The position numbers and the translations under genes were made by a program. Shown one piece after another: positions 30,614 to 41,046 of a stretch of 64,000 bases of DNA. The notes beneath the pieces were generated by a model, which was not told the DNA's origin, searched no databases, and saw only the letters and a program-made list of their open reading frames with translations. Each line of letters opens with the position of its first letter. Position 1 is the stretch's first letter. This DNA is from a phage, in sequence record PZ212788.1; one strand, 5' to 3'.

Positions 30614-32095
30614 TTACTTAGCGTACTCGATTAATTCCACAGTTTTACCAAAGCTAGGGATATAATTTTTATTATACCCTTCGGTGAGAACCCATAAAGT
30701 ATCGTACTTTTTCCACCTGTTGTCAACAGCCTTTTGTTCAAAGTTATGCTCAAAGTATAGGTCGGTCAGGACGATGACATCTTTTGCATTTGGTATGTTG
30801 GCATCCAGATACTCGAACACGCAAGCAGCTGTTGTGCCCCATGTTGAGTGGACCTCATAGTTGATCATCTCGTCTATGTTGCCGCGAGTATATACTTTAA
30901 CCTCTCCGACTTCAGTTGACCAACAGAACATTGTAACCTTAAACTCTTTATACAGGTTGCACAATCCGGTGATTTCATTGAACATTTTCTTTAAAGTTCT
31001 TTGAGAGATCGAGCCAGAAACGTCTAAAGCCACCACAATATCTATAGTGTTTTCCGGATTACGACCCGGAACAATAACGTGTTGGTTCTTGTTTATAGCT
31101 CCAACTTTTCGCATTGTGCTGGTCAAAGACCCAGATCGGCGACCAGGTTTTCTGTAGGTCAGTTCGGCCTTTCGTTTAGACAACATGCGTTGCTTGATGA
31201 TGTCTATATAATTGATTACAGGCTTACCTCTGTTCTTGACAAACTCACGAACCGCCTCAGGGCAACGACCTCCGGAAGCTTGCATTGCTGCCTCCAGCAT
31301 GTCACCAGAGTCCTGCATGGCCTGATCTTTATCAGATTGGCTGATTACAGGTTGTGGCTGATCATACCCCATAGCCTTTCCAAGATCATCACTAGTGCCA
31401 CCGTTCCCACTCATGTGATCATCGGTTTGTCGCTTATCACCTTGAAAGTTCTCACCTTTACCGTTCTTACTTTTACCGTTATTTTGATCTCTTTGCTTAT
31501 CAAGAACTGCATAAACGTTCTCAGCAATCCATCCATGAAACTTCATGTCGCAGTAGCAGCTGGCTAAGAAGCCAAAAGGCTTACCTTTTACGAACGTAGT
31601 GCTTTTCCCTTTTGGGAAGAAAACACAAGGAGGCTTGCTAAAGTCAACCACAAGGCCTGTGTTGATGACGTGATCACAAGCAATGTTGAACAGTTCCGGT
31701 TCAAAGCTTTTACCACGGACCAGGTGATCACAGATAATATGCCCCACCTCATGTGACAGAAGAAAGGCCACCTCTTTCACAGATTTGGGGGAATAGAAAA
31801 CCTCAGCCATCTCAAACTGCTCGTCAGTTAGAGAAGCCTTAAGAATAGCCTTGCGTTCATCAGCCAACCCCATAATGAACTCAGGACTGTAATAGATGCG
31901 TTTATGGTCGGTTGCCATGGTGGAGCACCATGTGTGGTTTTCTACGAACTGCAACCCTGACAGTAGTGTGCCATAAAACGGCAGCTTTTCAAGGAGATAC
32001 ATACGTGCAGCCTGCAACATTCTCAGGGCATCATCTTTCTGTGAGGCAATGATTTCTGAACTTCTGCTATCCATTAAAACTCCAGAAGGGGACAA
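30614..32095 (-). CDS. vWA-domain protein with N-terminal putative metallopeptidase domain (DUF2201-like, 493 aa)
   Basis: HExxH-type HEVGHIICDH in N-terminal half; MIDAS-type DIVVALDVSGSIS in C-terminal half. Confidence 0.65.
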   Translation of the reverse strand: MSPSGVLMDSRSSEIIASQKDDALRMLQAARMYLLEKLPFYGTLLSGLQFVENHTWCSTMATDHKRIYYSPEFIMGLADERKAILKASLTDEQFEMAEVFYSPKSVKEVAFLLSHEVGHIICDHLVRGKSFEPELFNIACDHVINTGLVVDFSKPPCVFFPKGKSTTFVKGKPFGFLASCYCDMKFHGWIAENVYAVLDKQRDQNNGKSKNGKGENFQGDKRQTDDHMSGNGGTSDDLGKAMGYDQPQPVISQSDKDQAMQDSGDMLEAAMQASGGRCPEAVREFVKNRGKPVINYIDIIKQRMLSKRKAELTYRKPGRRSGSLTSTMRKVGAINKNQHVIVPGRNPENTIDIVVALDVSGSISQRTLKKMFNEITGLCNLYKEFKVTMFCWSTEVGEVKVYTRGNIDEMINYEVHSTWGTTAACVFEYLDANIPNAKDVIVLTDLYFEHNFEQKAVDNRWKKYDTLWVLTEGYNKNYIPSFGKTVELIEYAK

Positions 32096-32107
32096 TGGCC
32101 CCTGTCA

Positions 32108-33085
32108 TTATTTAACGTGTTTGAAAATACCTGCCAACTCGGTCATTGTCATGCGGGTGGTCTTCATAAGATCTGTCATAGCTTTCTCCATAATTGGAGA
32201 TACTACCATAAAGTTTCCTTTAGTGAAACCTTTATTCCAGTCGGTCACCAACAGTGGTTTAAGTCCAGCTCCGAGACGTTCACCAGTTAAAGCACAGCAT
32301 TTGCGAATATACGAACTCTTAAATTGGCTGAACGACAGATCAACTTTCATACCTGCATCGTAGAACGTTTGACAATAGAAAGTGTAAGCCTTAGCAATCT
32401 CAACATCATCAGGCAGTGCAGGAACTTCTTCTGTAATATCCTCTTCGACCTCCTGAGGATCTTTTTCCTCTTCAGAGTTCTGTTCTTCAATTTCTTCTGT
32501 CACAGTCTCGTTTACGATGTCTGAAATGTGTTTGTTGGCTGCACGATCAGCCATGAAATTTTTAAAGTCCTGCATTGGTGACATATCTTCCTCCTCTTCG
32601 TCAAATAGTGCTAGTTTATCTTCTTCTGTCCCGTATTGCAAGATGAAATCTTCAAAAGTATAATCACCTTTCAATTTCTCCATACGCTCTTCGCTCAGGT
32701 GGAGCATCATCTGCTGGACAATTTTTCGATCAGTTTTATCTTTTATCAAGATTGCAGTCTTTTTATCTACCAGACAGTCCTTCAGAGCGTTGCACCTCAA
32801 TCCCACCACACAACAATTATCAATTGAGTAAGGACCTTCATCATCTATCCGCTCCAGAGATGGATAGAAAGGATTTCCCAGCCCGTTTTCATCTGTGTGC
32901 ATGTCAAAAGGTATAAGGGTGTAATCGCACACTCCATCTCCTAAAAGTTTTTTACCAAATAGGAGGTATTCTTCCCATGACAGGTTGAACTCTATATCCC
33001 GTTTCCGTGCATTATTCTGTTTGCGTCTATATTTTTTGAGCAGGCGCTCTAACTCTTCTGGTGTATAATATTTTTCAAGATTCAT
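32108..33085 (-). CDS. HNH-like (His-Me finger) protein with acidic linker
   Basis: ATG 33085 with RBS AAGAGA preferred over TTG 33151; motif CDYTLIPFDMHTDENGLGNPFYPSLERIDDEGPYSIDNCCVVGLRCNALK; acidic EEEEDM and EEQNSEEEKDPQEVEED stretch. Confidence 0.45.
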   Translation of the reverse strand: MNLEKYYTPEELERLLKKYRRKQNNARKRDIEFNLSWEEYLLFGKKLLGDGVCDYTLIPFDMHTDENGLGNPFYPSLERIDDEGPYSIDNCCVVGLRCNALKDCLVDKKTAILIKDKTDRKIVQQMMLHLSEERMEKLKGDYTFEDFILQYGTEEDKLALFDEEEEDMSPMQDFKNFMADRAANKHISDIVNETVTEEIEEQNSEEEKDPQEVEEDITEEVPALPDDVEIAKAYTFYCQTFYDAGMKVDLSFSQFKSSYIRKCCALTGERLGAGLKPLLVTDWNKGFTKGNFMVVSPIMEKAMTDLMKTTRMTMTELAGIFKHVK

Positions 33086-33116
33086 GAGTTGTCTCTTGTG
33101 CTCTGTAGGTGAAGAA

Positions 33117-33145
33117 ATCTTATCAAGTGCCTCAACAGATGTCAA
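33117..33145 (-). promoter_or_regulatory. Sigma70-type promoter for minus-strand block
   Basis: On minus strand: -35 TTGACA, 17-nt spacer, -10 TAAGAT, about 30 nt upstream of ATG 33085. Confidence 0.6.
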
Positions 33146-33158
33146 CCTCAAAAACGTG

Positions 33159-33187
33159 TTGACTTTACCCTAAATCCACGATATAGT
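33159..33187 (+). promoter_or_regulatory. Sigma70-type promoter for plus-strand early block
   Basis: -35 TTGACT, 17-nt spacer, -10 TATAGT; divergent from the minus-strand promoter. Confidence 0.65.
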
Positions 33188-33227
33188 GCACCCATTCGAA
33201 AGAAAACGAACACAGGAGTACTTAATC

Positions 33228-34127
33228 ATGGCAAATCTTAACAGCTTTAGCACTCGGTGGAAACAAGATATCACAACCAATCTCTCAGCAGGCGATATCC
33301 TTTCTGCAATTTACGAGGCTTTGGATGATAAAGCTACTTCAAAAGCGGTTTGTACCAACCCACTAATTCCTGTAGTGATGAAGGTTATTGAGCGTAGATT
33401 GGTATCCGGGTCTGATAAGTGGACATATTTAGATAATGAAGGACACACCTATTCCAATGGGTACGTCGATATAAAAGTAGAATACGCGGTATCATACCGC
33501 CGGAGCGGTTCTGTAACTTTCAACTTCTCTGGAGGTTTTCGATCTCTGGCTACCTCACCTTTTGTTTCCTCAGAGGAGAAGTATGAGCTTCCATTTCTTT
33601 GGATGATGGCTAACGCGACAGGAAAAACCCCCGTTAGCATCCGAGTAAAATACAACTACAACGGATCTAGTAAGATCTATGCCGAGAGTGTCTCAGCAAG
33701 TTTTTATTTTGTGATGGGGGATGGAATCCTCAAACATATAAAGATGTGCGATATGCATGATGTTATAAATGAAGTGACTGATAAGAATGTTCTGGTGAAG
33801 GATCTCAACAATTTTTATACACCCGGAGACTATTACGTCAGCCGTCCACTGTGCATCTTTAATGCCGCACACCCTCTAGGTGAGTATTTGATCGCCAATA
33901 GCGATATTGCCAATAACCGCTTCGAGGTAGCAAGAGTACAGAATGAGGTATTGACATCTTGCAAGAGCGGTGATAAGTTTACCGAAGAAGAGATGGGTGT
34001 TTTAGAAATGATGGGATATAAGTGTAGCCTTTGGGTAGATGAGGTGTTTAATGATTGCATCTATGGACAGGATATTTACCCATTAAAGAAGTATACTGAT
34101 TCCAGTTTAATTTACGCGGAGATTTGA
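33228..34127 (+). CDS. Hypothetical early protein (299 aa)
   Basis: ATG 33228 with RBS AGGAG preferred over GTG 33186, which lies inside the -10 hexamer. Confidence 0.5.
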   Translation: MANLNSFSTRWKQDITTNLSAGDILSAIYEALDDKATSKAVCTNPLIPVVMKVIERRLVSGSDKWTYLDNEGHTYSNGYVDIKVEYAVSYRRSGSVTFNFSGGFRSLATSPFVSSEEKYELPFLWMMANATGKTPVSIRVKYNYNGSSKIYAESVSASFYFVMGDGILKHIKMCDMHDVINEVTDKNVLVKDLNNFYTPGDYYVSRPLCIFNAAHPLGEYLIANSDIANNRFEVARVQNEVLTSCKSGDKFTEEEMGVLEMMGYKCSLWVDEVFNDCIYGQDIYPLKKYTDSSLIYAEI

Positions 34128-34129
34128 CT

Positions 34130-34402
34130 ATGATGAAGTCATGTGGTAGTGTATATTATGTTGGTGAGAATGTTCAGGCAGATAGTGTGTGGAAATCCAT
34201 TAAGTCCACCACCGATGATGCCTTTCTGAGCGGGTTATGCTTTCCCAGCCCAGGGGACACTCTCCCTTACCCTGGAGATTTTGTTGTCAACAAGATGGAC
34301 GGTTATACCGTGTGCCTGATGGTTGAAAAAATCTTTTTAGACACTAGACACAATCACCGTCTTGTGTTAAAATTTCAAGAATGTAAAATGACAATTTCCT
34401 AA
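34130..34402 (+). CDS. Hypothetical protein (90 aa)
   Basis: ATG 34130 with RBS GGAGA preferred over TTG 34124. Confidence 0.4.
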   Translation: MMKSCGSVYYVGENVQADSVWKSIKSTTDDAFLSGLCFPSPGDTLPYPGDFVVNKMDGYTVCLMVEKIFLDTRHNHRLVLKFQECKMTIS

Positions 34403-34415
34403 GGAGACCTTGCCG

Positions 34416-34772
34416 ATGTCTAAAGTTACTTATCGTGCAGCTATTTACTGCAATGAACACCCAATCTATAATGATGGTCACTGCCTTTTTAAAGAAAATC
34501 AATTGGGCTGTATTGTCCTACCTGATGAAGGGAAAGGTTATCTGATTGCATTGACAGGGTTCGAGCCTGAAGCTCTGGAAGCCAATCTGGACTATCTGGT
34601 AGAAGAGGGTGCTGCAGACCTGGTTTCCAATGGCCTCGCCATAAGCCTTGACGAGGTGGAGCGCTTCATGGGCAATTACCGTGTAGTGCGTGAGTTTACT
34701 ATCGAGGTGGAAACTCCAGAGTGGGGTAGCACTGAAACTAACGCCGAAGAAAAAGAAGAGGAGGCAGAATAA
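34416..34772 (+). CDS. Hypothetical protein with acidic C-terminus (118 aa)
   Basis: ATG 34416 with RBS AAGGAGA; C-terminal ETNAEEKEEEAE. Confidence 0.45.
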   Translation: MSKVTYRAAIYCNEHPIYNDGHCLFKENQLGCIVLPDEGKGYLIALTGFEPEALEANLDYLVEEGAADLVSNGLAISLDEVERFMGNYRVVREFTIEVETPEWGSTETNAEEKEEEAE

Positions 34773-35029
34773 TGAAAGTGCAGATCTTGACTAATGCCGA
34801 GAAGATGTTTATTGAAGATACACCTTTTGAAGCTGGTGAGCTACAGTTCGTTTATTTTGTTGACTTAGATAAGGTGTTCCCTGCACTGAATCTGGGTCTG
34901 GATGAAGTCCCTCATAAAGTTTTGTGCCAAGTTGTTCGTGCCTTAGCGGCAGATGGGGATTTCCACACCCTTGAAGATATCCAGACCTACGGGTATCTTG
35001 AACTGCAACGAGAAGAAGAGGTGGACTGA
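34772..35029 (+). CDS. Hypothetical protein (85 aa)
   Basis: RBS GAGGAGG; start overlaps upstream stop. Confidence 0.4.
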   Translation: MKVQILTNAEKMFIEDTPFEAGELQFVYFVDLDKVFPALNLGLDEVPHKVLCQVVRALAADGDFHTLEDIQTYGYLELQREEEVD

Positions 35030-35031
35030 TA

Positions 35032-35412
35032 ATGGCCCGGTGGAAGACAACAGTTGACCTTCATGATCAGTGGTTAGGACGCATCGCTGAAGACGGGAAA
35101 CTAGTAGAGTGGGACAATAAGCATGTTAGCGAGTTGGCAAGCATTGTGGCTGGCAAGTTACGCTCCAAGTTCCCTGAACAACTGGATCCTGATAATTCAA
35201 AGTTCGATCCTGAGTTGGAGGATGTTGTATACTACTTCGATACCGTGGATGACTACGATGCGTGGCTTGCAGCACGGGAGCTTTACCCACAAGGCTCTGC
35301 TATGCGCCAGATGGAAGAAGATTATCCTCCGTGTGAGCAATTCAATAGCGCAATGACTTGCCTCTATGATTGGGCAGATAAGAACCTTGTCTGGATTCGG
35401 ACTGCATTTTAG
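35032..35412 (+). CDS. Hypothetical protein (126 aa)
   Basis: ORF in co-oriented early operon. Confidence 0.45.
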   Translation: MARWKTTVDLHDQWLGRIAEDGKLVEWDNKHVSELASIVAGKLRSKFPEQLDPDNSKFDPELEDVVYYFDTVDDYDAWLAARELYPQGSAMRQMEEDYPPCEQFNSAMTCLYDWADKNLVWIRTAF

Positions 35413-35456
35413 TGGGCAGGAATGGCGGCAAGGATGCCGCTTAAGGAGTAGTAGAG

Positions 35457-35726
35457 ATGTTATACCAGCAATATGAACTTCGTGCAGAAAAAGAGTTAAA
35501 TTTTGACAAAGATATTCACAGATATTATTATGGGAAAGTTAGAGGGCAAGCAAGAAAGTGTACTCCAACACTCTTTTATGCCAGCAGACGACTAGCGCCA
35601 GAAGAGGCAACAGCAGAAAGGGTTGCGTACAACTGGAGAGTCACGTATGATATTGACAGATTCGATGTGATATCTGTTTTGGAAAACTTTGAAAACACTT
35701 ACACACAAGTAGAGGACTTTTACTAA
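35457..35726 (+). CDS. Hypothetical protein (89 aa)
   Basis: RBS AAGGAG. Confidence 0.45.
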   Translation: MLYQQYELRAEKELNFDKDIHRYYYGKVRGQARKCTPTLFYASRRLAPEEATAERVAYNWRVTYDIDRFDVISVLENFENTYTQVEDFY

Positions 35727-36910
35727 TGTCAAGAAACGTATTCGAAAGTGGTCAAATCACTGTCCGTGAGTTGCCAGCTATTATTCAGTTTGCCCAACGT
35801 CATAGCCGATCTGTCCTAATTTTGGGACCAATGGGTGTGGGTAAAAGCCAGGTGATGAAGCAGATCGCTGATAATATGTTCGGTGAGCGAGATGACAACC
35901 TTGTTGACGTGCGACTGTCAGATAAAGATCCTGCCGACTTATCTGGGCTACCTATCCCTGTAGAAGCGGATGGAACTACACGTACAGTGTTTGCAATTCC
36001 AGAATTTTGGCCTGCGGATCCTGACTGGAGCGGAATTATCTTTCTGGATGAGCTCACTCATGCAGATAACTACCTGCAAAAGGTTGCAATGCAAATTATG
36101 CTTGACCACAAGTGCGGCACCTATGCATTCCCTAAGGGTTCTGTTTTTGTGGCTGCGGGTAACCGTTCTACAGATGGTGCGGTTCTTTCGGCGCTCGAAG
36201 CCCCTCTGGCTAACCGTTTTATCATTGTAGAGGTTACAAGCAATGCAGAGGTGTTTATTGAGGACTACGCATTCCTCAACGGGGTTCACTCCTCTGTAAT
36301 TGGGTATCTGAAAAGAGTTCCATCAGCTATTGATAATTATGAGGCTATGGCTGAGATTAATTGTCCATCTTTTGCCACACCACGATCTTGGGTTGCTGCA
36401 TCTGACATCTTGCACGATTTTGACAGCGGTATTATTTCTGACGCTATGGCCCGTGTTCTTCTGCAAGGTGCTATTGGTCACACTGCAGCGGTAGAGATCT
36501 GGACATACCACACCAAGAAACGCAATTTACCGGAAATCGGTCGGATTATGGCAGGTGGCTGCAAAGAATACGTAGGTCCTAAGCAGCCAGACATTTTGTG
36601 GATTCTTGGATCTGAAGGTTGTATCGCTATTCGTAATATGATGGAAAATGCAAGTATCTCAGACGAAGATCTTGTCAGCTGTGTGGCAAACTTCCTCGAT
36701 TTCCTTTGGGAAAACTTCAAGGACGAGAACCGAGATTTTGTATTCTCAGTCTTTATGGCGATGATGAAACCTAATGCCTTAGGAAATGCCTTGCTTATCG
36801 GTAAAGGGCGTGACAAGATTGTTGCTCAGCTGATCAAAGCATACCCAAACCTGATGAAGATTGTAAAAGAGTTTGGTGAAGAGTTTAGCGCCATTTTGGC
36901 TAAAGCTTAA
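35726..36910 (+). CDS. AAA+ ATPase, MoxR/CbbQ-like (AAA_5 type, 394 aa)
   Basis: Walker A GPMGVGKSQ, Walker B IIFLDELTHA, sensor region VFVAAGNRS. Confidence 0.7.
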   Translation: MSRNVFESGQITVRELPAIIQFAQRHSRSVLILGPMGVGKSQVMKQIADNMFGERDDNLVDVRLSDKDPADLSGLPIPVEADGTTRTVFAIPEFWPADPDWSGIIFLDELTHADNYLQKVAMQIMLDHKCGTYAFPKGSVFVAAGNRSTDGAVLSALEAPLANRFIIVEVTSNAEVFIEDYAFLNGVHSSVIGYLKRVPSAIDNYEAMAEINCPSFATPRSWVAASDILHDFDSGIISDAMARVLLQGAIGHTAAVEIWTYHTKKRNLPEIGRIMAGGCKEYVGPKQPDILWILGSEGCIAIRNMMENASISDEDLVSCVANFLDFLWENFKDENRDFVFSVFMAMMKPNALGNALLIGKGRDKIVAQLIKAYPNLMKIVKEFGEEFSAILAKA

Positions 36911-36920
36911 GGGGGGTTGT

Positions 36921-37301
36921 ATGGCTAAAGTAGGTAAGCGGGGAAACTACCTGGTGGTATTGACCGAGGAGCCGGAGAAGGAGTACGAATGCAGCTCCAC
37001 TTGCGTGATCGATATCCGAGAAAAAGATGTAGATGAAATCTGGTTTAAAATATTGGACGCTTGCGATAGCAGTGATTATTTCTTCATTTATGTCAACGAT
37101 AAGGCTGGATTCTTCCATGACGACGGAGAGTTGCCGTATGAAATCTATGAACTTGTAGAGGCTTGCCATCGTGGAGATGCGGAGTTGTTTGGCCTACGGC
37201 TGAAAAGCGGTAAATTCTTCTATCAAGATGAGTGCATGAATCTTCATAACTTTGTAGAGGGAACTTGCAACGATGGAGAGATTTTGGCACACTACGATTA
37301 A
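36921..37301 (+). CDS. Hypothetical protein (126 aa)
   Basis: ATG 36921 with RBS AAGGGGGG preferred over TTG 36873, which overlaps the ATPase gene. Confidence 0.45.
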   Translation: MAKVGKRGNYLVVLTEEPEKEYECSSTCVIDIREKDVDEIWFKILDACDSSDYFFIYVNDKAGFFHDDGELPYEIYELVEACHRGDAELFGLRLKSGKFFYQDECMNLHNFVEGTCNDGEILAHYD

Positions 37302-37312
37302 TTTCTAAGACC

Positions 37313-37340
37313 TCCCCCGCTTCGGCGGGGATTTTCTATT
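37313..37340 (+). terminator. Rho-independent terminator
   Basis: CCCCCGC-TTCG-GCGGGG stem-loop followed by ATTTTCTATTT. Confidence 0.7.
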
Positions 37341-37350
37341 TGGAGTCATT

Positions 37351-37851
37351 GTGAAAATTAAGATCTTTGCTATTATTTTGAGCGCACTTTTATCGCTGCC
37401 TGTTGTTGCAGCACCAAAACAAAAAGTATATCATACTTGCAAGCCCTCAGATACTAAGGAAAACATTCTGGCATGCAATATCTACAGGGAGGCTAGAGGG
37501 GATGGCACGATGGGTATGCTGGCATCAGGGTTTGCCACACTAAACAGGAAATCTCACCCCAAATACCCAGACACTATAAGAAACATTGTCTACCAACCTA
37601 ACCAGTTTTCGTGGACAAACCACGGCAAAACTTTTAAGGTGACAGAAAAAGATTCATGGGATCACGCTAAAAGTCTTGCAAAGATGCTTCTAAAGGTCTA
37701 TAATAACAACCATGTTGCATACATGGCTATGGACATAACAGGTGGAGCAACACACTACCATACAACCAAAGTACGACCGAAATGGGCAAAAAAGATGCAG
37801 AGGACAGCTCAATTCGGGAGTCATATCTACTACAAGGAGCGCAATAAATGA
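37351..37851 (+). CDS. SleB-like cell wall hydrolase with N-terminal signal peptide (candidate endolysin)
   Basis: GTG start with RBS GGAG; signal peptide MKIKIFAIILSALLSLPVVAAP; Hydrolase_2 motifs NIYREARGDG, ATLNR, YQPNQFS. Confidence 0.65.
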   Translation: MKIKIFAIILSALLSLPVVAAPKQKVYHTCKPSDTKENILACNIYREARGDGTMGMLASGFATLNRKSHPKYPDTIRNIVYQPNQFSWTNHGKTFKVTEKDSWDHAKSLAKMLLKVYNNNHVAYMAMDITGGATHYHTTKVRPKWAKKMQRTAQFGSHIYYKERNK

Positions 37852-39830
37852 TTGTAAACAGTAATGAAACTAAAGCAGTACTAACCGGAAATATGGAGGT
37901 CACCAGGGGCTCAATTTCTCTGAACAAAGAGACTTTTGGGCTAATCATTAAAGGGATTTACGAAGATAAGGTGCTGGCAAGCTGCCGTGAACCAATCTTC
38001 AATGCTGTGGACTCCCATGTTGAGTCTGGACGGGGTGATGTACCTATCATCATTCACTCTCCTACAGACCTTGAACCATACTTCTTTGTGCAGGACGTTG
38101 GATTGGGCATGTCAGAAGAGATGGTCCGCAACACTTTCATGAATCTCGGGGAGTCAACCAAGCGCAACAGCAACGCTCTGGTAGGTAATAAAGGTGTTGG
38201 TTCAAAGGCTCCGTTCAGTATGGTGGACACTTTCGATGTTATCAGTGTGCACAATGGTGTTGAAAGCACATATCTATTGTTCTTGGATCAGGGTATCCCA
38301 AACGTTACCAAGATCCGCGAGCGAAAGACTGAAGAGCACAACGGGGTAAAAGTTCAGTTCCATGTTAAGAAAGAGCATGTTCTGAAATATCGCACTGCTA
38401 TTGCGTCATGCCTACGCTATGCAAAGTTTCCGTTTACCGTTACCGACCCTATGACCAGTAAGATGCTGGAAGGTGACAAGGTTGAGGCGCAGTATCGCTA
38501 CGAGAAAGATGGTTGGAAAATGACTATCCTGAAAGGTTATACCAGCTCTGATGAGAGCCGTGTGGTGATGGGACACCAACCTTACCGCTCTAAGTTTCTG
38601 GAAACATTGACAGACTACCCTGCAATCTGTGTAGAGATCCCTATCGGGGATTGCAATATTAACCCTGGGCGCGAATGGACCATAGAGGGGCACGACGATG
38701 GTGGATTCCAGGATCGCCTGGAGGCCTTTGTCAAAGAAGGTATACGTCTTCGTGGGGCAGAAGTTGTTGCGGAATTGGAGACAGCAAAAACATCCTCAGA
38801 AGCACGTGAGATGATGAAGAACAGTGGAGTGTTCGGACACATCTTCGGCAAAAACTTTATGTGGAACCGTTGGGAAGAAACAGGGCTTGGCGACTTAGGC
38901 GATTGTGAAATTTTCGCTGGCGGCTTAAATAAAGGCCGCATAGGCTATGCTCGTTACGGAAAGTCGGAGTTCTTACGAGGTGTATACCTTGTATTTAACG
39001 ACGGAGACGGCAAATATAACCGAAATAAGTGTAACTACTTAAGCGAGATCACCGGACGCAACGTTTTCTATTGCCGTAACACGGATCTGATGGAAGAGTT
39101 TAAAGAAGCGGCACACCACCCGTTCTTTGCAGATACGGTCAAATTGTTATCAGAGCTCCCTCGCCGTCCTGTAAAGAAAGGTGAAACAAAAACTCACTAT
39201 GAGCCAGGGTATTGGGTTAAAAAACTTGAGAAAGATGGTTACTTCCGTCGTGAGCGTATTACTAAGGCAGAGTTCAAGAAGATTAAGCACTGCATTCCTT
39301 ATGAGGGTGATATCCAACGTGGAAGTTGTTGGCTGGGACAGCTAAGTAACATCTACCAGCAAAATTATGACCGTGTGCGTGCGGCACTCAAGATTCCTGA
39401 AGGGGAAGATCTGTACCTGGTATCAGAATCTCGTCTGCTTTGGACTGATCCTGATTGCCAGTATGTTACAGAGAAAAATGTGGAACATTTGTTGAAAGAG
39501 GACGCCTGGAAATTCTTACTGACTCGCGCAGCAAATGAAACTTCATATGACAGCCTGTATAGACAATTAGGGAAAATTATCCCCATGCAAGATTTTGGAA
39601 ATTATCGGCCACATTTCCACAAGTGGGAAGGTAACACCGCGTGGAAGCACAGTGAGCTAAATCATCGTGCCAAAATCTTAATCGCCAACCGAGTCAAGTG
39701 CGGGAAGGCCTATATTGCAAGATTGGAAAAGAAATATCCACTTTTGAAGCATGTGGGCTTGAAATATTGGGACACTCCTGCTATGATTGAATACCGTGAA
39801 CTGATCGACGCAAAGAATAACACCAAATAA
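37848..39830 (+). CDS. rIIA: rIIA-like protein with N-terminal GHKL ATPase fold (660 aa)
   Basis: GHKL boxes EPIFNAVDSH, QDVGLGMSEE, GNKGVGSKAPFS; N-terminal region aligns with recalled T4 rIIA (ETK..GN, DFG.GMS, SKSPFS.TDTF). Confidence 0.75.
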   Translation: MIVNSNETKAVLTGNMEVTRGSISLNKETFGLIIKGIYEDKVLASCREPIFNAVDSHVESGRGDVPIIIHSPTDLEPYFFVQDVGLGMSEEMVRNTFMNLGESTKRNSNALVGNKGVGSKAPFSMVDTFDVISVHNGVESTYLLFLDQGIPNVTKIRERKTEEHNGVKVQFHVKKEHVLKYRTAIASCLRYAKFPFTVTDPMTSKMLEGDKVEAQYRYEKDGWKMTILKGYTSSDESRVVMGHQPYRSKFLETLTDYPAICVEIPIGDCNINPGREWTIEGHDDGGFQDRLEAFVKEGIRLRGAEVVAELETAKTSSEAREMMKNSGVFGHIFGKNFMWNRWEETGLGDLGDCEIFAGGLNKGRIGYARYGKSEFLRGVYLVFNDGDGKYNRNKCNYLSEITGRNVFYCRNTDLMEEFKEAAHHPFFADTVKLLSELPRRPVKKGETKTHYEPGYWVKKLEKDGYFRRERITKAEFKKIKHCIPYEGDIQRGSCWLGQLSNIYQQNYDRVRAALKIPEGEDLYLVSESRLLWTDPDCQYVTEKNVEHLLKEDAWKFLLTRAANETSYDSLYRQLGKIIPMQDFGNYRPHFHKWEGNTAWKHSELNHRAKILIANRVKCGKAYIARLEKKYPLLKHVGLKYWDTPAMIEYRELIDAKNNTK

Positions 39831-39840
39831 GGAGACAGCT

Positions 39841-40422
39841 ATGATTTTCATCTACGAACATTTCAAAACTCGTAAAGAAGCACGCGACCGCCGTGCAGAA
39901 CTTGAGAAGAAGGGTTTCACATGTGCTATTGAGAAAGGTACTACAACATGGACACTGGCAGTAGGTGCCCCAGAGCTGTTTGATCCTGACCGAGACAGTG
40001 TCTGCTATACCCGTGAGGATTTTGAAACCCGCGAAGAGGCCCGTTTATTCCGCTACGGACTGGAAGACAACGGTAAGTACGCCATGATCTTAGATTCAGG
40101 TGAAGGTTCCGTTAAACGTTGGGGCGTGGTATACCCACTGTGTGTTGTTCACGGTGTGGGGGTCACTGGGGTAGCAATCAAGTCAGAAGAACCTTTAGTA
40201 GAAGTCAAAGATCCGGTGCTGGAAGTGGTGAGCAGTGTGTCTCAGCAACAGTCTCGAAGCATCGAGCCTTTGGTAGTTATTTGCGGGGAACTCCTCCAGA
40301 TCACCTGCAACGAAGGCATTTTTGAAATTCGCCGCAGCGAAAGTGAGGAAGTTTACCAGAAAGTCTTCGACCATATTTCTGTTCAGGAATATGATGAGGC
40401 AATTGGTGAAATCCTTGTCTAG
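39841..40422 (+). CDS. rIIB: rIIB-like protein, N-terminal portion ending at in-frame TAG (193 aa)
   Basis: RBS AAGGAGA; same reading frame as 40468-41046; C-terminal YQKVFDHISVQEYDEAIGEI resembles the T4 rIIB mid-region. Confidence 0.5.
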   Translation: MIFIYEHFKTRKEARDRRAELEKKGFTCAIEKGTTTWTLAVGAPELFDPDRDSVCYTREDFETREEARLFRYGLEDNGKYAMILDSGEGSVKRWGVVYPLCVVHGVGVTGVAIKSEEPLVEVKDPVLEVVSSVSQQQSRSIEPLVVICGELLQITCNEGIFEIRRSESEEVYQKVFDHISVQEYDEAIGEILV

Positions 40423-40467
40423 CTGGAACGCAAGAATGAGTTCACCACACTTGCAGACAACCTGATC

Positions 40468-41046
40468 ATGAAAGATGGTAAGCTCTACTACTACGGTGTA
40501 GAGATGCGATCCACCATTGCAAAGAAAATTGAGAAAGATTATGCAGACGGAACGCTGGATGACCGCTATGTGAAATTCCTCGTTCGCCTGCTACGCAATC
40601 CTTCTGCAAAATCTGTAAACATGCTCTACGATTTTATGCAGGCCAACGATATCCAGATTGCAGAAGATGGTCGAATCATTTGCTACAAAGGGGTTCAGTT
40701 TAACGGCAGCAAGTGGGTAGATTGGCACAGTGGTAAAGTTCCACAATACCAGGGTGCTTTTGTATCCATGCCTCGTAACTTTGTAGAGGATGATCCGGAA
40801 GCTGCGTGCTCCTATGGCTTACACTGCGCCAGCAAAGAGTATGCAAAGAGCTACGGCACTGTAATGACTGTCATGGTTGACCCTGCAGATGTGGTTAGTG
40901 TGCCATACCAACACAATAGCGCCAAGTGCCGTGCATGCCGCTATGAGATTGTGGTAGCTCCGGAAGCACGCAAAGATGGAGACCCTATTGAATATGTAGT
41001 TGATCGTGACGGTAACACTATCGACATTCTTTACGAGGAGGCGTAA
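40468..41046 (+). CDS. rIIB: rIIB-like protein, C-terminal portion (192 aa from first ATG after the TAG)
   Basis: FLVRLLRNPSAKSVNMLYDFMQANDIQIAEDG, CSYGLHCASKEYAKSYG and DPADVVSVPYQHNSAKCRACRYEIV match the recalled T4 rIIB C-terminal domain. Confidence 0.7.
   Translation: MKDGKLYYYGVEMRSTIAKKIEKDYADGTLDDRYVKFLVRLLRNPSAKSVNMLYDFMQANDIQIAEDGRIICYKGVQFNGSKWVDWHSGKVPQYQGAFVSMPRNFVEDDPEAACSYGLHCASKEYAKSYGTVMTVMVDPADVVSVPYQHNSAKCRACRYEIVVAPEARKDGDPIEYVVDRDGNTIDILYEEA

Follow-up and report, generated by a model that had tools for sequence, protein, structure and literature searches.

The 64,000-nucleotide stretch of sequence record PZ212788.1 (hereafter, the window) derives from an rV5-like Escherichia coli phage of the genus Vequintavirus and encodes, on opposite strands, a MoxR-type AAA+ ATPase and a protein in which a putative zinc metallopeptidase domain is fused to a vWA domain. 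The two genes are very probably partner subunits of the family that includes gp24 and gp25 of phage N4, and the two protein families occur together at nearly every viral and bacterial locus surveyed. Taken as a whole, the evidence makes it probable that the pair represents a conserved module of ATPase and zinc-peptidase/vWA protein, split by an inversion in the rV5-like lineage, which would operate as an ATP-gated protease targeted through the metal ion-dependent adhesion site (MIDAS) of the vWA domain.

The two protein families and their linkage

Both open reading frames (ORFs) lie on the strands and at the coordinates proposed in the original prediction, 30614-32095 on the minus strand for the vWA protein and 35726-36910 on the plus strand for the ATPase. 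Only the start of the former needs correction: the TTG at 32095 is disfavoured, and translation likely begins at the ATG at 32074, with GGAG 5 nt upstream, giving a protein of 486 aa, the length annotated for the vWA protein in relatives. The two genes and their diagnostic motifs comprise:

30614..32074, minus strand: vWA/zinc-peptidase gene (DUF2201_N plus DUF2201), 486 aa from the ATG at 32074, homologue of rV5 gp12 and N4 gp25
31724..31753, minus strand: HEVGHIICDH, the zinc-binding/catalytic HExxHxxxxH motif (H115, E116, H119, H124), invariant in alignments
31394..31471, minus strand: Gly/Asp/Lys/Asn-rich low-confidence loop, residues 209-234, inside the peptidase domain, predicted local distance difference test (pLDDT) below 50
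31004..31042, minus strand: DIVVALDVSGSIS, beta-strand 1 plus MIDAS DxSGS (D358, S360, S362), invariant
30761..30838, minus strand: further MIDAS residues T421 (GTT, nt 30830-30838) and D445 (TD, nt 30761-30766), invariant
35726..36910, plus strand: MoxR-type AAA+ ATPase gene, 394 aa, homologue of rV5 gp4 and N4 gp24
35825..35851, plus strand: Walker A GPMGVGKSQ (G37, G39, K40, S41 invariant)
36041..36055, plus strand: Walker B FLDEL (D108, E109), invariant
36152..36220, plus strand: sensor 1 AAGNR (N146, R147) and arginine finger LANRF (R164), invariant
36374..36391, plus strand: sensor 2 region ATPRSW (R220), with P219 and R220 invariant

In the profile search suggested for it, the vWA protein clears the Pfam gathering thresholds of two domains in N-to-C order: (i) DUF2201_N (PF13203, 'putative metallopeptidase'), with 98.1 bits against a cutoff of 23.2 over residues 95-321, and (ii) DUF2201 (PF09967, 'VWA-like'), with 44 bits against a cutoff of 26.4 over residues 353-488. 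The two signatures named beforehand are in place, HEVGHIICDH at residues 115-124 (nt 31724-31753) and DIVVALDVSGSIS at residues 352-364 (nt 31004-31042). Across phages and bacteria, in alignments of 30 and 35 sequences that reach down to about 21% identity, H115, E116, H119, H124 and D141 of the peptidase domain are invariant, and so are the complete MIDAS set (D358, S360, S362, T421 and D445) and the residues G420 and T444. The loop at residues 209-234 is predicted to be disordered and has a counterpart of similar composition, which cannot be aligned, in every family member; the rV5-group proteins carry, in addition, lineage-specific insertions. In fold searches, the model of the protein matches vWA domains including those of NorD, the Midasin MIDAS domain and BchD.

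The ATPase carries the expected GPMGVGKSQ at residues 34-42 (nt 35825-35851), and an alignment of 35 sequences shows no variation in its Walker A, Walker B, sensor 1, arginine finger and sensor 2 residues. Single-sequence searches against Pfam, NCBIfam and PDB returned sub-threshold P-loop matches (AAA_14, ClpB/ClpC, p97) and were set aside as uninformative. Because the direct Pfam score falls below threshold, membership of the MoxR group is drawn from transitive homology: homologues of about 360 aa in a large protein collection (E about 1e-44; 34% identical along 85% of the query) carry both AAA_3, the MoxR model, and AAA_5. Within the family, 13 of the 35 aligned members match AAA_5 and AAA_3 at E of 1e-3 or lower, the best at 2.4e-9; the ATPase partner in the bacterial operon reaches 43.9 bits, six distant members weakly match the Pfam model bpMoxR, and the best match of the family profile is Midasin/Rea1 (8e-10). 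The AlphaFold model (pLDDT 83.5; predicted template modelling score, pTM, 0.76) finds NorQ, which was solved with the NorD VWA domain, or CbbQ2 at all of the top 18 Foldseek ranks, with E of 6e-8 to 4e-6 and a target template modelling (TM) score of 0.56-0.66, the best of these matches falling at E of 6e-8 to 2e-7 and target TM of 0.62-0.66. The model also contains a strand pair (75-81/84-90) following helix 2 and short strands (129-134) ahead of the sensor-1 strand, corresponding to the MoxR hairpin insertions. Homologues, invariant motifs and a confident predicted model place the window ATPase with the MoxR-type enzymes, as the original prediction had proposed; the possibility, raised there, that it might group with a family that never partners vWA proteins does not hold, since its closest MoxR relatives all work with vWA/MIDAS partners.

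The linkage of the two families was measured with family hidden Markov models (HMMs) built for both proteins and with the gene geometry of loci from public collections. The ATPase lies within 10 kb at 79 of the 80 viral loci anchored on the vWA (DUF2201) gene, and at the lone miss (L086) the DUF2201 gene sits at the contig start. It is upstream on the same strand in 75 of the 80, with a gap of at most 300 bp in 63 (median 125 bp) and with insertions of up to 3.8 kb in 12. The reciprocal sample comprises 77 new ATPase-anchored viral loci, ten of which run out of contig less than 1.3 kb downstream; all 67 testable loci hold the vWA gene, 65 on the same strand and 2 on the opposite one. Bacterial loci anchored on DUF2201, from sulfur-oxidising Gammaproteobacteria, contain the partner in 78-79 of 80 cases, with the ATPase directly upstream in 78; they come from a narrower bacterial alignment and sample one gammaproteobacterial clade. 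Among cultured phages, tblastn detects the vWA protein in 652 records and the ATPase in 813, and at 95% identity or more in 119 and 118 records, respectively. The ATPase is thus upstream and in the same orientation in 75/80 and 65/67 viral loci and in 78/80 bacterial ones, in agreement with the expectation that such pairs are normally co-transcribed.

In other phages, the neighbours of the pair include genes for a 5'-3' exonuclease, thymidylate synthase, dUTPase, ThyX and dCTP deaminase. In at least 47 of the 80 bacterial loci, a conserved gene about 370 aa long comes directly after the ATPase-DUF2201 operon (L005, 7297-8409; others among L168-L247); it matches nothing in Pfam, lacks a homologue both in the window and at every viral locus, and its product could be a client or a third subunit in bacteria. 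A conserved third component of the phage module was considered and discarded, given the lack of a phage homologue of this gene and the fact that no small gene 3' of the vWA gene is kept between lineages.

The junction between the two genes is occupied in some genomes: a homing endonuclease gene (orf124, L167, 11564-12061) lies exactly between the ATPase and DUF2201 genes of the Pectobacterium phage P7_Pc, a Certrevirus, and insertions of 0.3-3.8 kb are found there in several uncultured phages (L015, L038 and L053, among others). The junction thus tolerates insertions.

The split layout and its transcription

The original prediction had described the window pair as divided over a divergent junction, and this is what is found, with the gene starts on opposite strands and separated by 3.63 kb. 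The surrounding 7.5 kb is 96-97% identical to more than 100 rV5-like E. coli myoviruses, all of which hold the same genes in the same arrangement. Among the surveyed loci, the opposite-strand layout occurs only in the rV5-like ones (L007-L010, L087, L088 and L001), with a separation of 3.6-5.3 kb among these relatives; Erwinia phage Hena1 is alike by coordinates.

Three arrangements in more distant members of this phage group, each just downstream of a divergent junction, bear on how the split arose. Contig L165 carries the ATPase gene directly followed by DUF2201 on one arm; contig L164 has four small genes between the two, also on one arm; and P7_Pc, from the same subfamily (Vequintavirinae), preserves the ATPase-DUF2201 order with the single endonuclease gene between. 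In L164 and L165, the genes for a cell-wall hydrolase and a PIF1-like helicase are found across the junction from the ATPase; the window has them downstream of the ATPase in unchanged relative order, and its hydrolase, PIF1-like helicase and a downstream small gene are collinear with that opposite arm of the two contigs. Judged from gene order, the ancestral arrangement was likely the ATPase-then-vWA operon, and the split was probably produced by a single inversion of the segment that spans the bidirectional promoter region, a few leader genes and the ATPase gene, in the lineage that includes Vequintavirus.

Both genes are under strong purifying selection, with a ratio of nonsynonymous to synonymous substitution (dN/dS) of about 0.03: 0.025-0.029 for the vWA gene and 0.025-0.038 for the ATPase, compared with 0.04 for rIIA and 0.06-0.07 for the hydrolase (comparisons with L007 were dropped owing to saturated synonymous sites). 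These values bear on whether the two products still work together. After the split, the ATPase might serve another partner, and the vWA-peptidase might act alone or with a host AAA+ protein, a view to which the opposite strands and the distance between the genes, the conserved promoter-like site of the ATPase described below, the insertions in the rV5-group vWA protein and the divergence of the ATPase beyond the Pfam MoxR models lend some colour. However, the two genes show the same very low dN/dS and remain on one bidirectional promoter region, all catalytic and MIDAS residues are kept in the split-lineage sequences, and a search for gene loss in syntenic relatives, envisaged in the original prediction, found neither gene lost in the split-lineage genomes (L001, L007-L010, L087 and L088; 119 and 118 records at 95% identity or more). 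Such a functional separation is very improbable, and continued partnership is preferred.

The surrounding transcription units comprise the following features, with the vWA gene as the second on the leftward arm, after the Srd-like gene, and the ATPase as the seventh on the rightward arm:

32087..32103, no strand assigned: GC-rich hairpin located after the Srd-like stop codon and ahead of the vWA ribosome-binding site, with a counterpart at the same place in L007 (9975-9994)
32108..33085, minus strand: Srd-like (anti-sigma decoy) gene, first of the leftward arm (rV5 gp11; PHROG 3118/1400/4592; PMC3606486)
33117..33145, minus strand: leftward sigma-70-like predicted promoter TTGACA-17-TAAGAT, extended -10 (TG), equivalent to rV5 P011
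33159..33187, plus strand: rightward sigma-70-like predicted promoter TTGACT-17-TATAGT, equivalent to rV5 P010
33228..35726, plus strand: six leader genes from the rightward promoter to the ATPase (299, 92, 120, 85, 126 and 89 aa)
35503..35531, plus strand: promoter-like site TTGACA-17-TATTAT, 11/12, within the 89-aa ORF; L007 has an equivalent in position and quality (6658-6630, minus strand)
36921..37301, plus strand: 126-aa gene 3' of the ATPase, last before the terminator (rV5 gp3, similar to T5.083)
37315..37340, plus strand: intrinsic terminator, CCCCGCTTCGGCGGGG then ATTTTCTATT, closing the ATPase transcription unit, identical to rV5 t003
37848-40750, plus strand: rIIA/rIIB region (N4 counterpart gp33, L166, 9461 onward)

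Both members of the divergent promoter pair proposed at 33117-33187 were recovered by a scan as sigma-70-like sites, and their sequences are those of the published rV5 predictions P010 and P011; they are predicted promoters, backed by their position and by the rV5 paper and not by statistics. In the same paper, gp4 is entered as 'MoxR - ATPase', and gp11, whose gene lies between P011 and the vWA gene, is identified as homologous to the Srd anti-sigma factor (PMC3606486). The Srd-like gene is followed, 33 nt on and in the same direction, by the vWA gene, and the hairpin at 32087-32103 in this gap could dampen read-through or adjust how strongly vWA is translated compared with the Srd-like gene. 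On the other arm, the ATG of the ATPase overlaps the preceding stop codon (TAATG), and the site at 35503-35531, whose -10 element ends 195 nt before this ATG, is the best promoter-like match of the region; L007, though its ATPase is only 73% identical, has a site of equal quality at an identical distance. This site is not in the rV5 promoter table, which took only upstream intergenic sequence, and the ATPase may have its own promoter besides P010. The rV5 late-promoter motif TGGTAAAATA occurs, with at most one mismatch, 15 times in the window against 5.6 expected and clusters in the structural/tail-fibre block (1-25 kb), whose plus strand has nine of the copies. Late-promoter control of the pair was considered but finds no support: no motif lies upstream of the ATPase, and one copy with a single mismatch is found inside the Srd-like gene.

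The ATPase arm of the window also holds, besides the cell-wall hydrolase and the PIF1-like helicase, the rIIA and rIIB genes. In rV5-like phages and in N4, groups that are otherwise unrelated, rIIA (with rIIB in the rV5-like group) lies within a few kb of the MoxR/vWA pair. The sign of the GC skew flips at about 26 kb and at about 33-34 kb, tracking the coding-strand switch of the minus-strand block at 26.3-33.1 kb. The Srd-like protein (32108-33085, minus strand) has no Pfam match; its N-terminal 130 residues also match PHROGs labelled endonuclease, endonuclease VII and 'decoy of host sigma70', and they are followed by an acidic, Glu/Asp-rich region.

Several database labels around the locus deserve comment. 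The 'HNH endonuclease' label of PHROG 1314, which covers the vWA family, is rejected, as Pfam, motifs and fold assign its members to DUF2201_N plus DUF2201; this label has passed on to the RefSeq entry of N4 gp25 (L166, 5165-6307) and to many phage records, and some Vequintavirus records name the vWA gene 'anti-sigma factor' after its neighbour. The 'ATPase' label of PHROG 13164 for the 89-aa protein (35457-35726) is likewise rejected, no domain supporting it. In Escherichia phage BP9 (L001, 16687-16989), an ORF that overlaps the rIIB end from the opposite strand is annotated as 'IS2 insertion element repressor InsA', which is probably an over-call. In addition, 16 'Campylobacter phage' records (host Campylobacter jejuni) within GenBank MG065635-MG065682 are 96-99% identical to the E. 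coli rV5-like phages here, and their host attribution looks doubtful.

A candidate ATP-gated protease and the alternatives

The systems NorQ-NorD, CbbQ-CbbO, RavA-ViaA and Midasin share a mode of action in which an AAA+ ring docks a vWA domain, the MIDAS metal grips an acidic residue of the client and ATP hydrolysis remodels the client (PMC7159879). NorQ-NorD and CbbQ-CbbO, the best structural matches for both subunits, combine a hexameric AAA+ ring with one vWA/MIDAS adaptor for client recognition, the clients being nitric oxide reductase and Rubisco, respectively. The window ATPase is 16-22% identical to the NorQ/CbbQ group and displays an extra helical C-terminal region of about 120 residues, and NorD and CbbO, unlike the window vWA protein, lack an HExxH peptidase domain. 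Midasin/Rea1 is one giant eukaryotic polypeptide with six fused AAA modules, devoted to ribosome biogenesis and devoid of a peptidase. In E. coli, the genes for the MoxR ATPase RavA and for its vWA cofactor, ViaA, share an operon, and ViaA stimulates RavA (PMC3893208). RavA contains a LARA domain and ViaA has no peptidase domain; RavA is not among the sequence or fold matches of the window ATPase.

Closer relatives are found in phages. N4 gp24 and gp25 belong to the same two families, the window HMMs scoring them at E of 1.2e-59 and 4.7e-82, respectively; gp25 carries HELWHVGLLH and DTSGS and matches DUF2201_N (3e-87) and DUF2201 (1e-46) in Pfam. The N4 and rV5-group proteins are about 21-27% identical, those of the rV5 group being 40-110 residues longer. 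The N4 genes are same-strand neighbours with 167 bp between them, transcribed by the middle RNA polymerase of the phage, whereas the window pair is split and served by predicted host-type sigma-70-like promoters; both phages have rIIA nearby, and in neither are the genes of the pair late genes. The two genes belong to the N4-like phages' core set of 14 genes (Schitoviridae; PMC4193335), and their function is listed as 'Unknown' (PMC2784036, PMC4193335). The original prediction was right in holding that the function of such pairs in phages is not established: no experimental role emerged from the literature searched, in which an assembly proposal is the only suggestion (PMC7824862), a search on DUF2201 returned no functional paper and a transcriptome preprint on PA5oct does not mention the pair.

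A further comparison is with bacterial defences. The MoxR-vWA ternary conflict systems (VMAP, iSTAND, FtsH, beta-propeller) are described as ATP-dependent switches, sometimes with peptidases (Kaur et al. 2020, PMC7159879); they contain a third component, whereas the phage-encoded pair is accompanied by no VMAP, iSTAND, FtsH or beta-propeller. Membership of a defence system was rejected, as PADLOC models gave no vWA match and ATPase matches at the P-loop level only (E of 0.003 or higher).

By analogy with these systems, the MoxR-type ATPase subunit would presumably form a hexamer, on whose ring the vWA domain would dock while its MIDAS metal holds an acidic residue of the target protein; remodelling of the complex by ATP hydrolysis would follow and would either switch on the fused zinc peptidase or feed the target to it. 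An ATP-gated protease is the most economical reading because the vWA subunit carries an invariant HExxH site; for the gating of proteolysis by the ATPase, taken by itself, the chances appear evenly balanced. Both genes being fed from one bidirectional promoter region, the subunits could still be made simultaneously.

The kind of target and the time of action can be approached through gene context. The host-type early promoters, the Srd-like gene, rIIA/rIIB, the nucleotide-metabolism neighbours elsewhere and the middle-gene status of the N4 pair, which the literature describes as transcribed with middle genes, together point to an intracellular target, of host or phage origin, early or midway through infection and not to virion maturation. 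A more specific version, in which the gp24/gp25-type module dismantles or cleaves a particular host complex soon after infection (e.g., a defence, transcription or replication factor), is a tentative proposal that we consider rather unlikely in that exact form.

The same context weighs on the only published hypothesis. Group 2.2 jumbo phages encode a MoxR-vWA pair with an N-terminal metallopeptidase on the vWA subunit, for which a role in virion assembly was proposed (Iyer et al. 2021, PMC7824862); of the published descriptions it comes nearest to the window pair, with which it shares its domain architecture, and homologues of the latter are present in 121Q, RaK2, GAP32 and G17 (E of 1e-26 to 1e-38). 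Accordingly, the pair could be an assembly chaperone with a maturation protease, helping to build the tail or head while the peptidase trims structural proteins, in analogy with the MoxR-vWA system required for tail development in the Acidianus two-tailed virus; in roseophage RPP1, moreover, some virion protein genes lie near the gp24/gp25 homologues. The rV5-like case, a 137-kb phage, differs from the jumbo phages in that the genes are split and stand in an early-region context: the pair is located by the early bidirectional promoters, the Srd-like gene and rIIA/rIIB, several kb from the structural block (1-26 kb) and its late motif. The early or middle gene position, seen also in N4, argues against virion assembly, as do the nucleotide-metabolism neighbours elsewhere and the fact that sulfur-oxidising Gammaproteobacteria conserve the pair as a chromosomal operon in surroundings that show no obvious link to phages. 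The main text of the rV5 paper names neither gp4 nor gp12 as a virion protein, yet a chaperone need not be packaged. An assembly role is, on balance, improbable.

Many MoxR-vWA systems insert metal cofactors or mature enzymes and do not cleave proteins. The phage pair could likewise be a chaperone for metal-cofactor insertion or enzyme maturation, comparable to NorQ-NorD, CoxD-CoxE, CbbQ-CbbO, CobS-CobT and BchI-BchD, with the HExxH motif binding or delivering a metal or binding the client, for example ribonucleotide reductase or another metalloenzyme of nucleotide metabolism, from either the phage or the host. The catalytic glutamate of HExxH is, however, invariant together with the histidines, which is expected for hydrolysis and unneeded for metal storage; a ferrochelatase gene neighbours the pair in only 9 of the 80 bacterial loci, and no conserved client gene lies beside it in phages. 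Membership of the chelatases (BchI-BchD, CobS-CobT) was rejected, given that profile searches did not retrieve BchI, ChlI or CobS and that the top folds are NorQ and CbbQ2. A cofactor-insertion role, which beside assembly is the alternative to be taken seriously, is accordingly judged to have little probability.

Besides the activities of these known MoxR-vWA systems, several observations count against the interpretation as an inverted, co-expressed, ATP-gated protease. First, the window ATPase alone falls below every Pfam and NCBIfam threshold; in the AAA_5 search named by the original prediction (PF07728) it scores 16.7 bits against a cutoff of 22, and AAA_3 (PF07726) is not listed. Second, the N-terminal, mostly helical domain of the vWA protein has no significant solved relative in the fold searches, which the vWA domain dominated, and its weak profile matches lie around the HExxH helix only (minigluzincin MJ1213, E 0.028; BepA, 0.18; HtpX, 0.71); the term 'protease' thus derives from the motif and the Pfam label. 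Third, the promoter-like sites of the region number 19 against a shuffle mean of 13.9 (standard deviation 4.1), not significantly above it, and the ATPase's own promoter-like site at 35503-35531 means that strict co-regulation of the pair may fail. Fourth, the direction of the inversion is drawn by parsimony from outgroups and not from a rooted phylogeny.

Significance for rV5-like and related phages

The genes themselves, their family assignment, the predicted promoters and the type of pair have already been described, and two annotated genes on opposite strands are, in themselves, an ordinary rearrangement. New here are (i) the quantified near-obligate linkage of both families across viral and bacterial data, (ii) the connection of the rV5 genes to N4 gp24/gp25, (iii) the inversion model and (iv) the argument from context against a role in assembly. 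The pair is among the most widely conserved phage gene couples without an assigned role: it is present in about 650-800 genomes of cultured phages, supplies two of the 14 N4-like core genes and is found, in addition, in rV5-like and jumbo phages of therapy or biocontrol use; the near-obligate co-occurrence, the invariant catalytic motifs and the strong purifying selection imply that it does something important.

The rV5-like split constitutes a natural experiment indicating that co-transcription is dispensable, and the rV5-like phages allow the two subunits to be manipulated one at a time in an E. coli system. If the pair does act as a protease on a host complex, it would represent an unrecognised class of host-takeover or counter-defence machine, core to N4-like podoviruses, rV5-like myoviruses and RaK2/121Q-like jumbo phages, and the rV5 lineage would show that its subunits need simultaneous expression, not one transcript.

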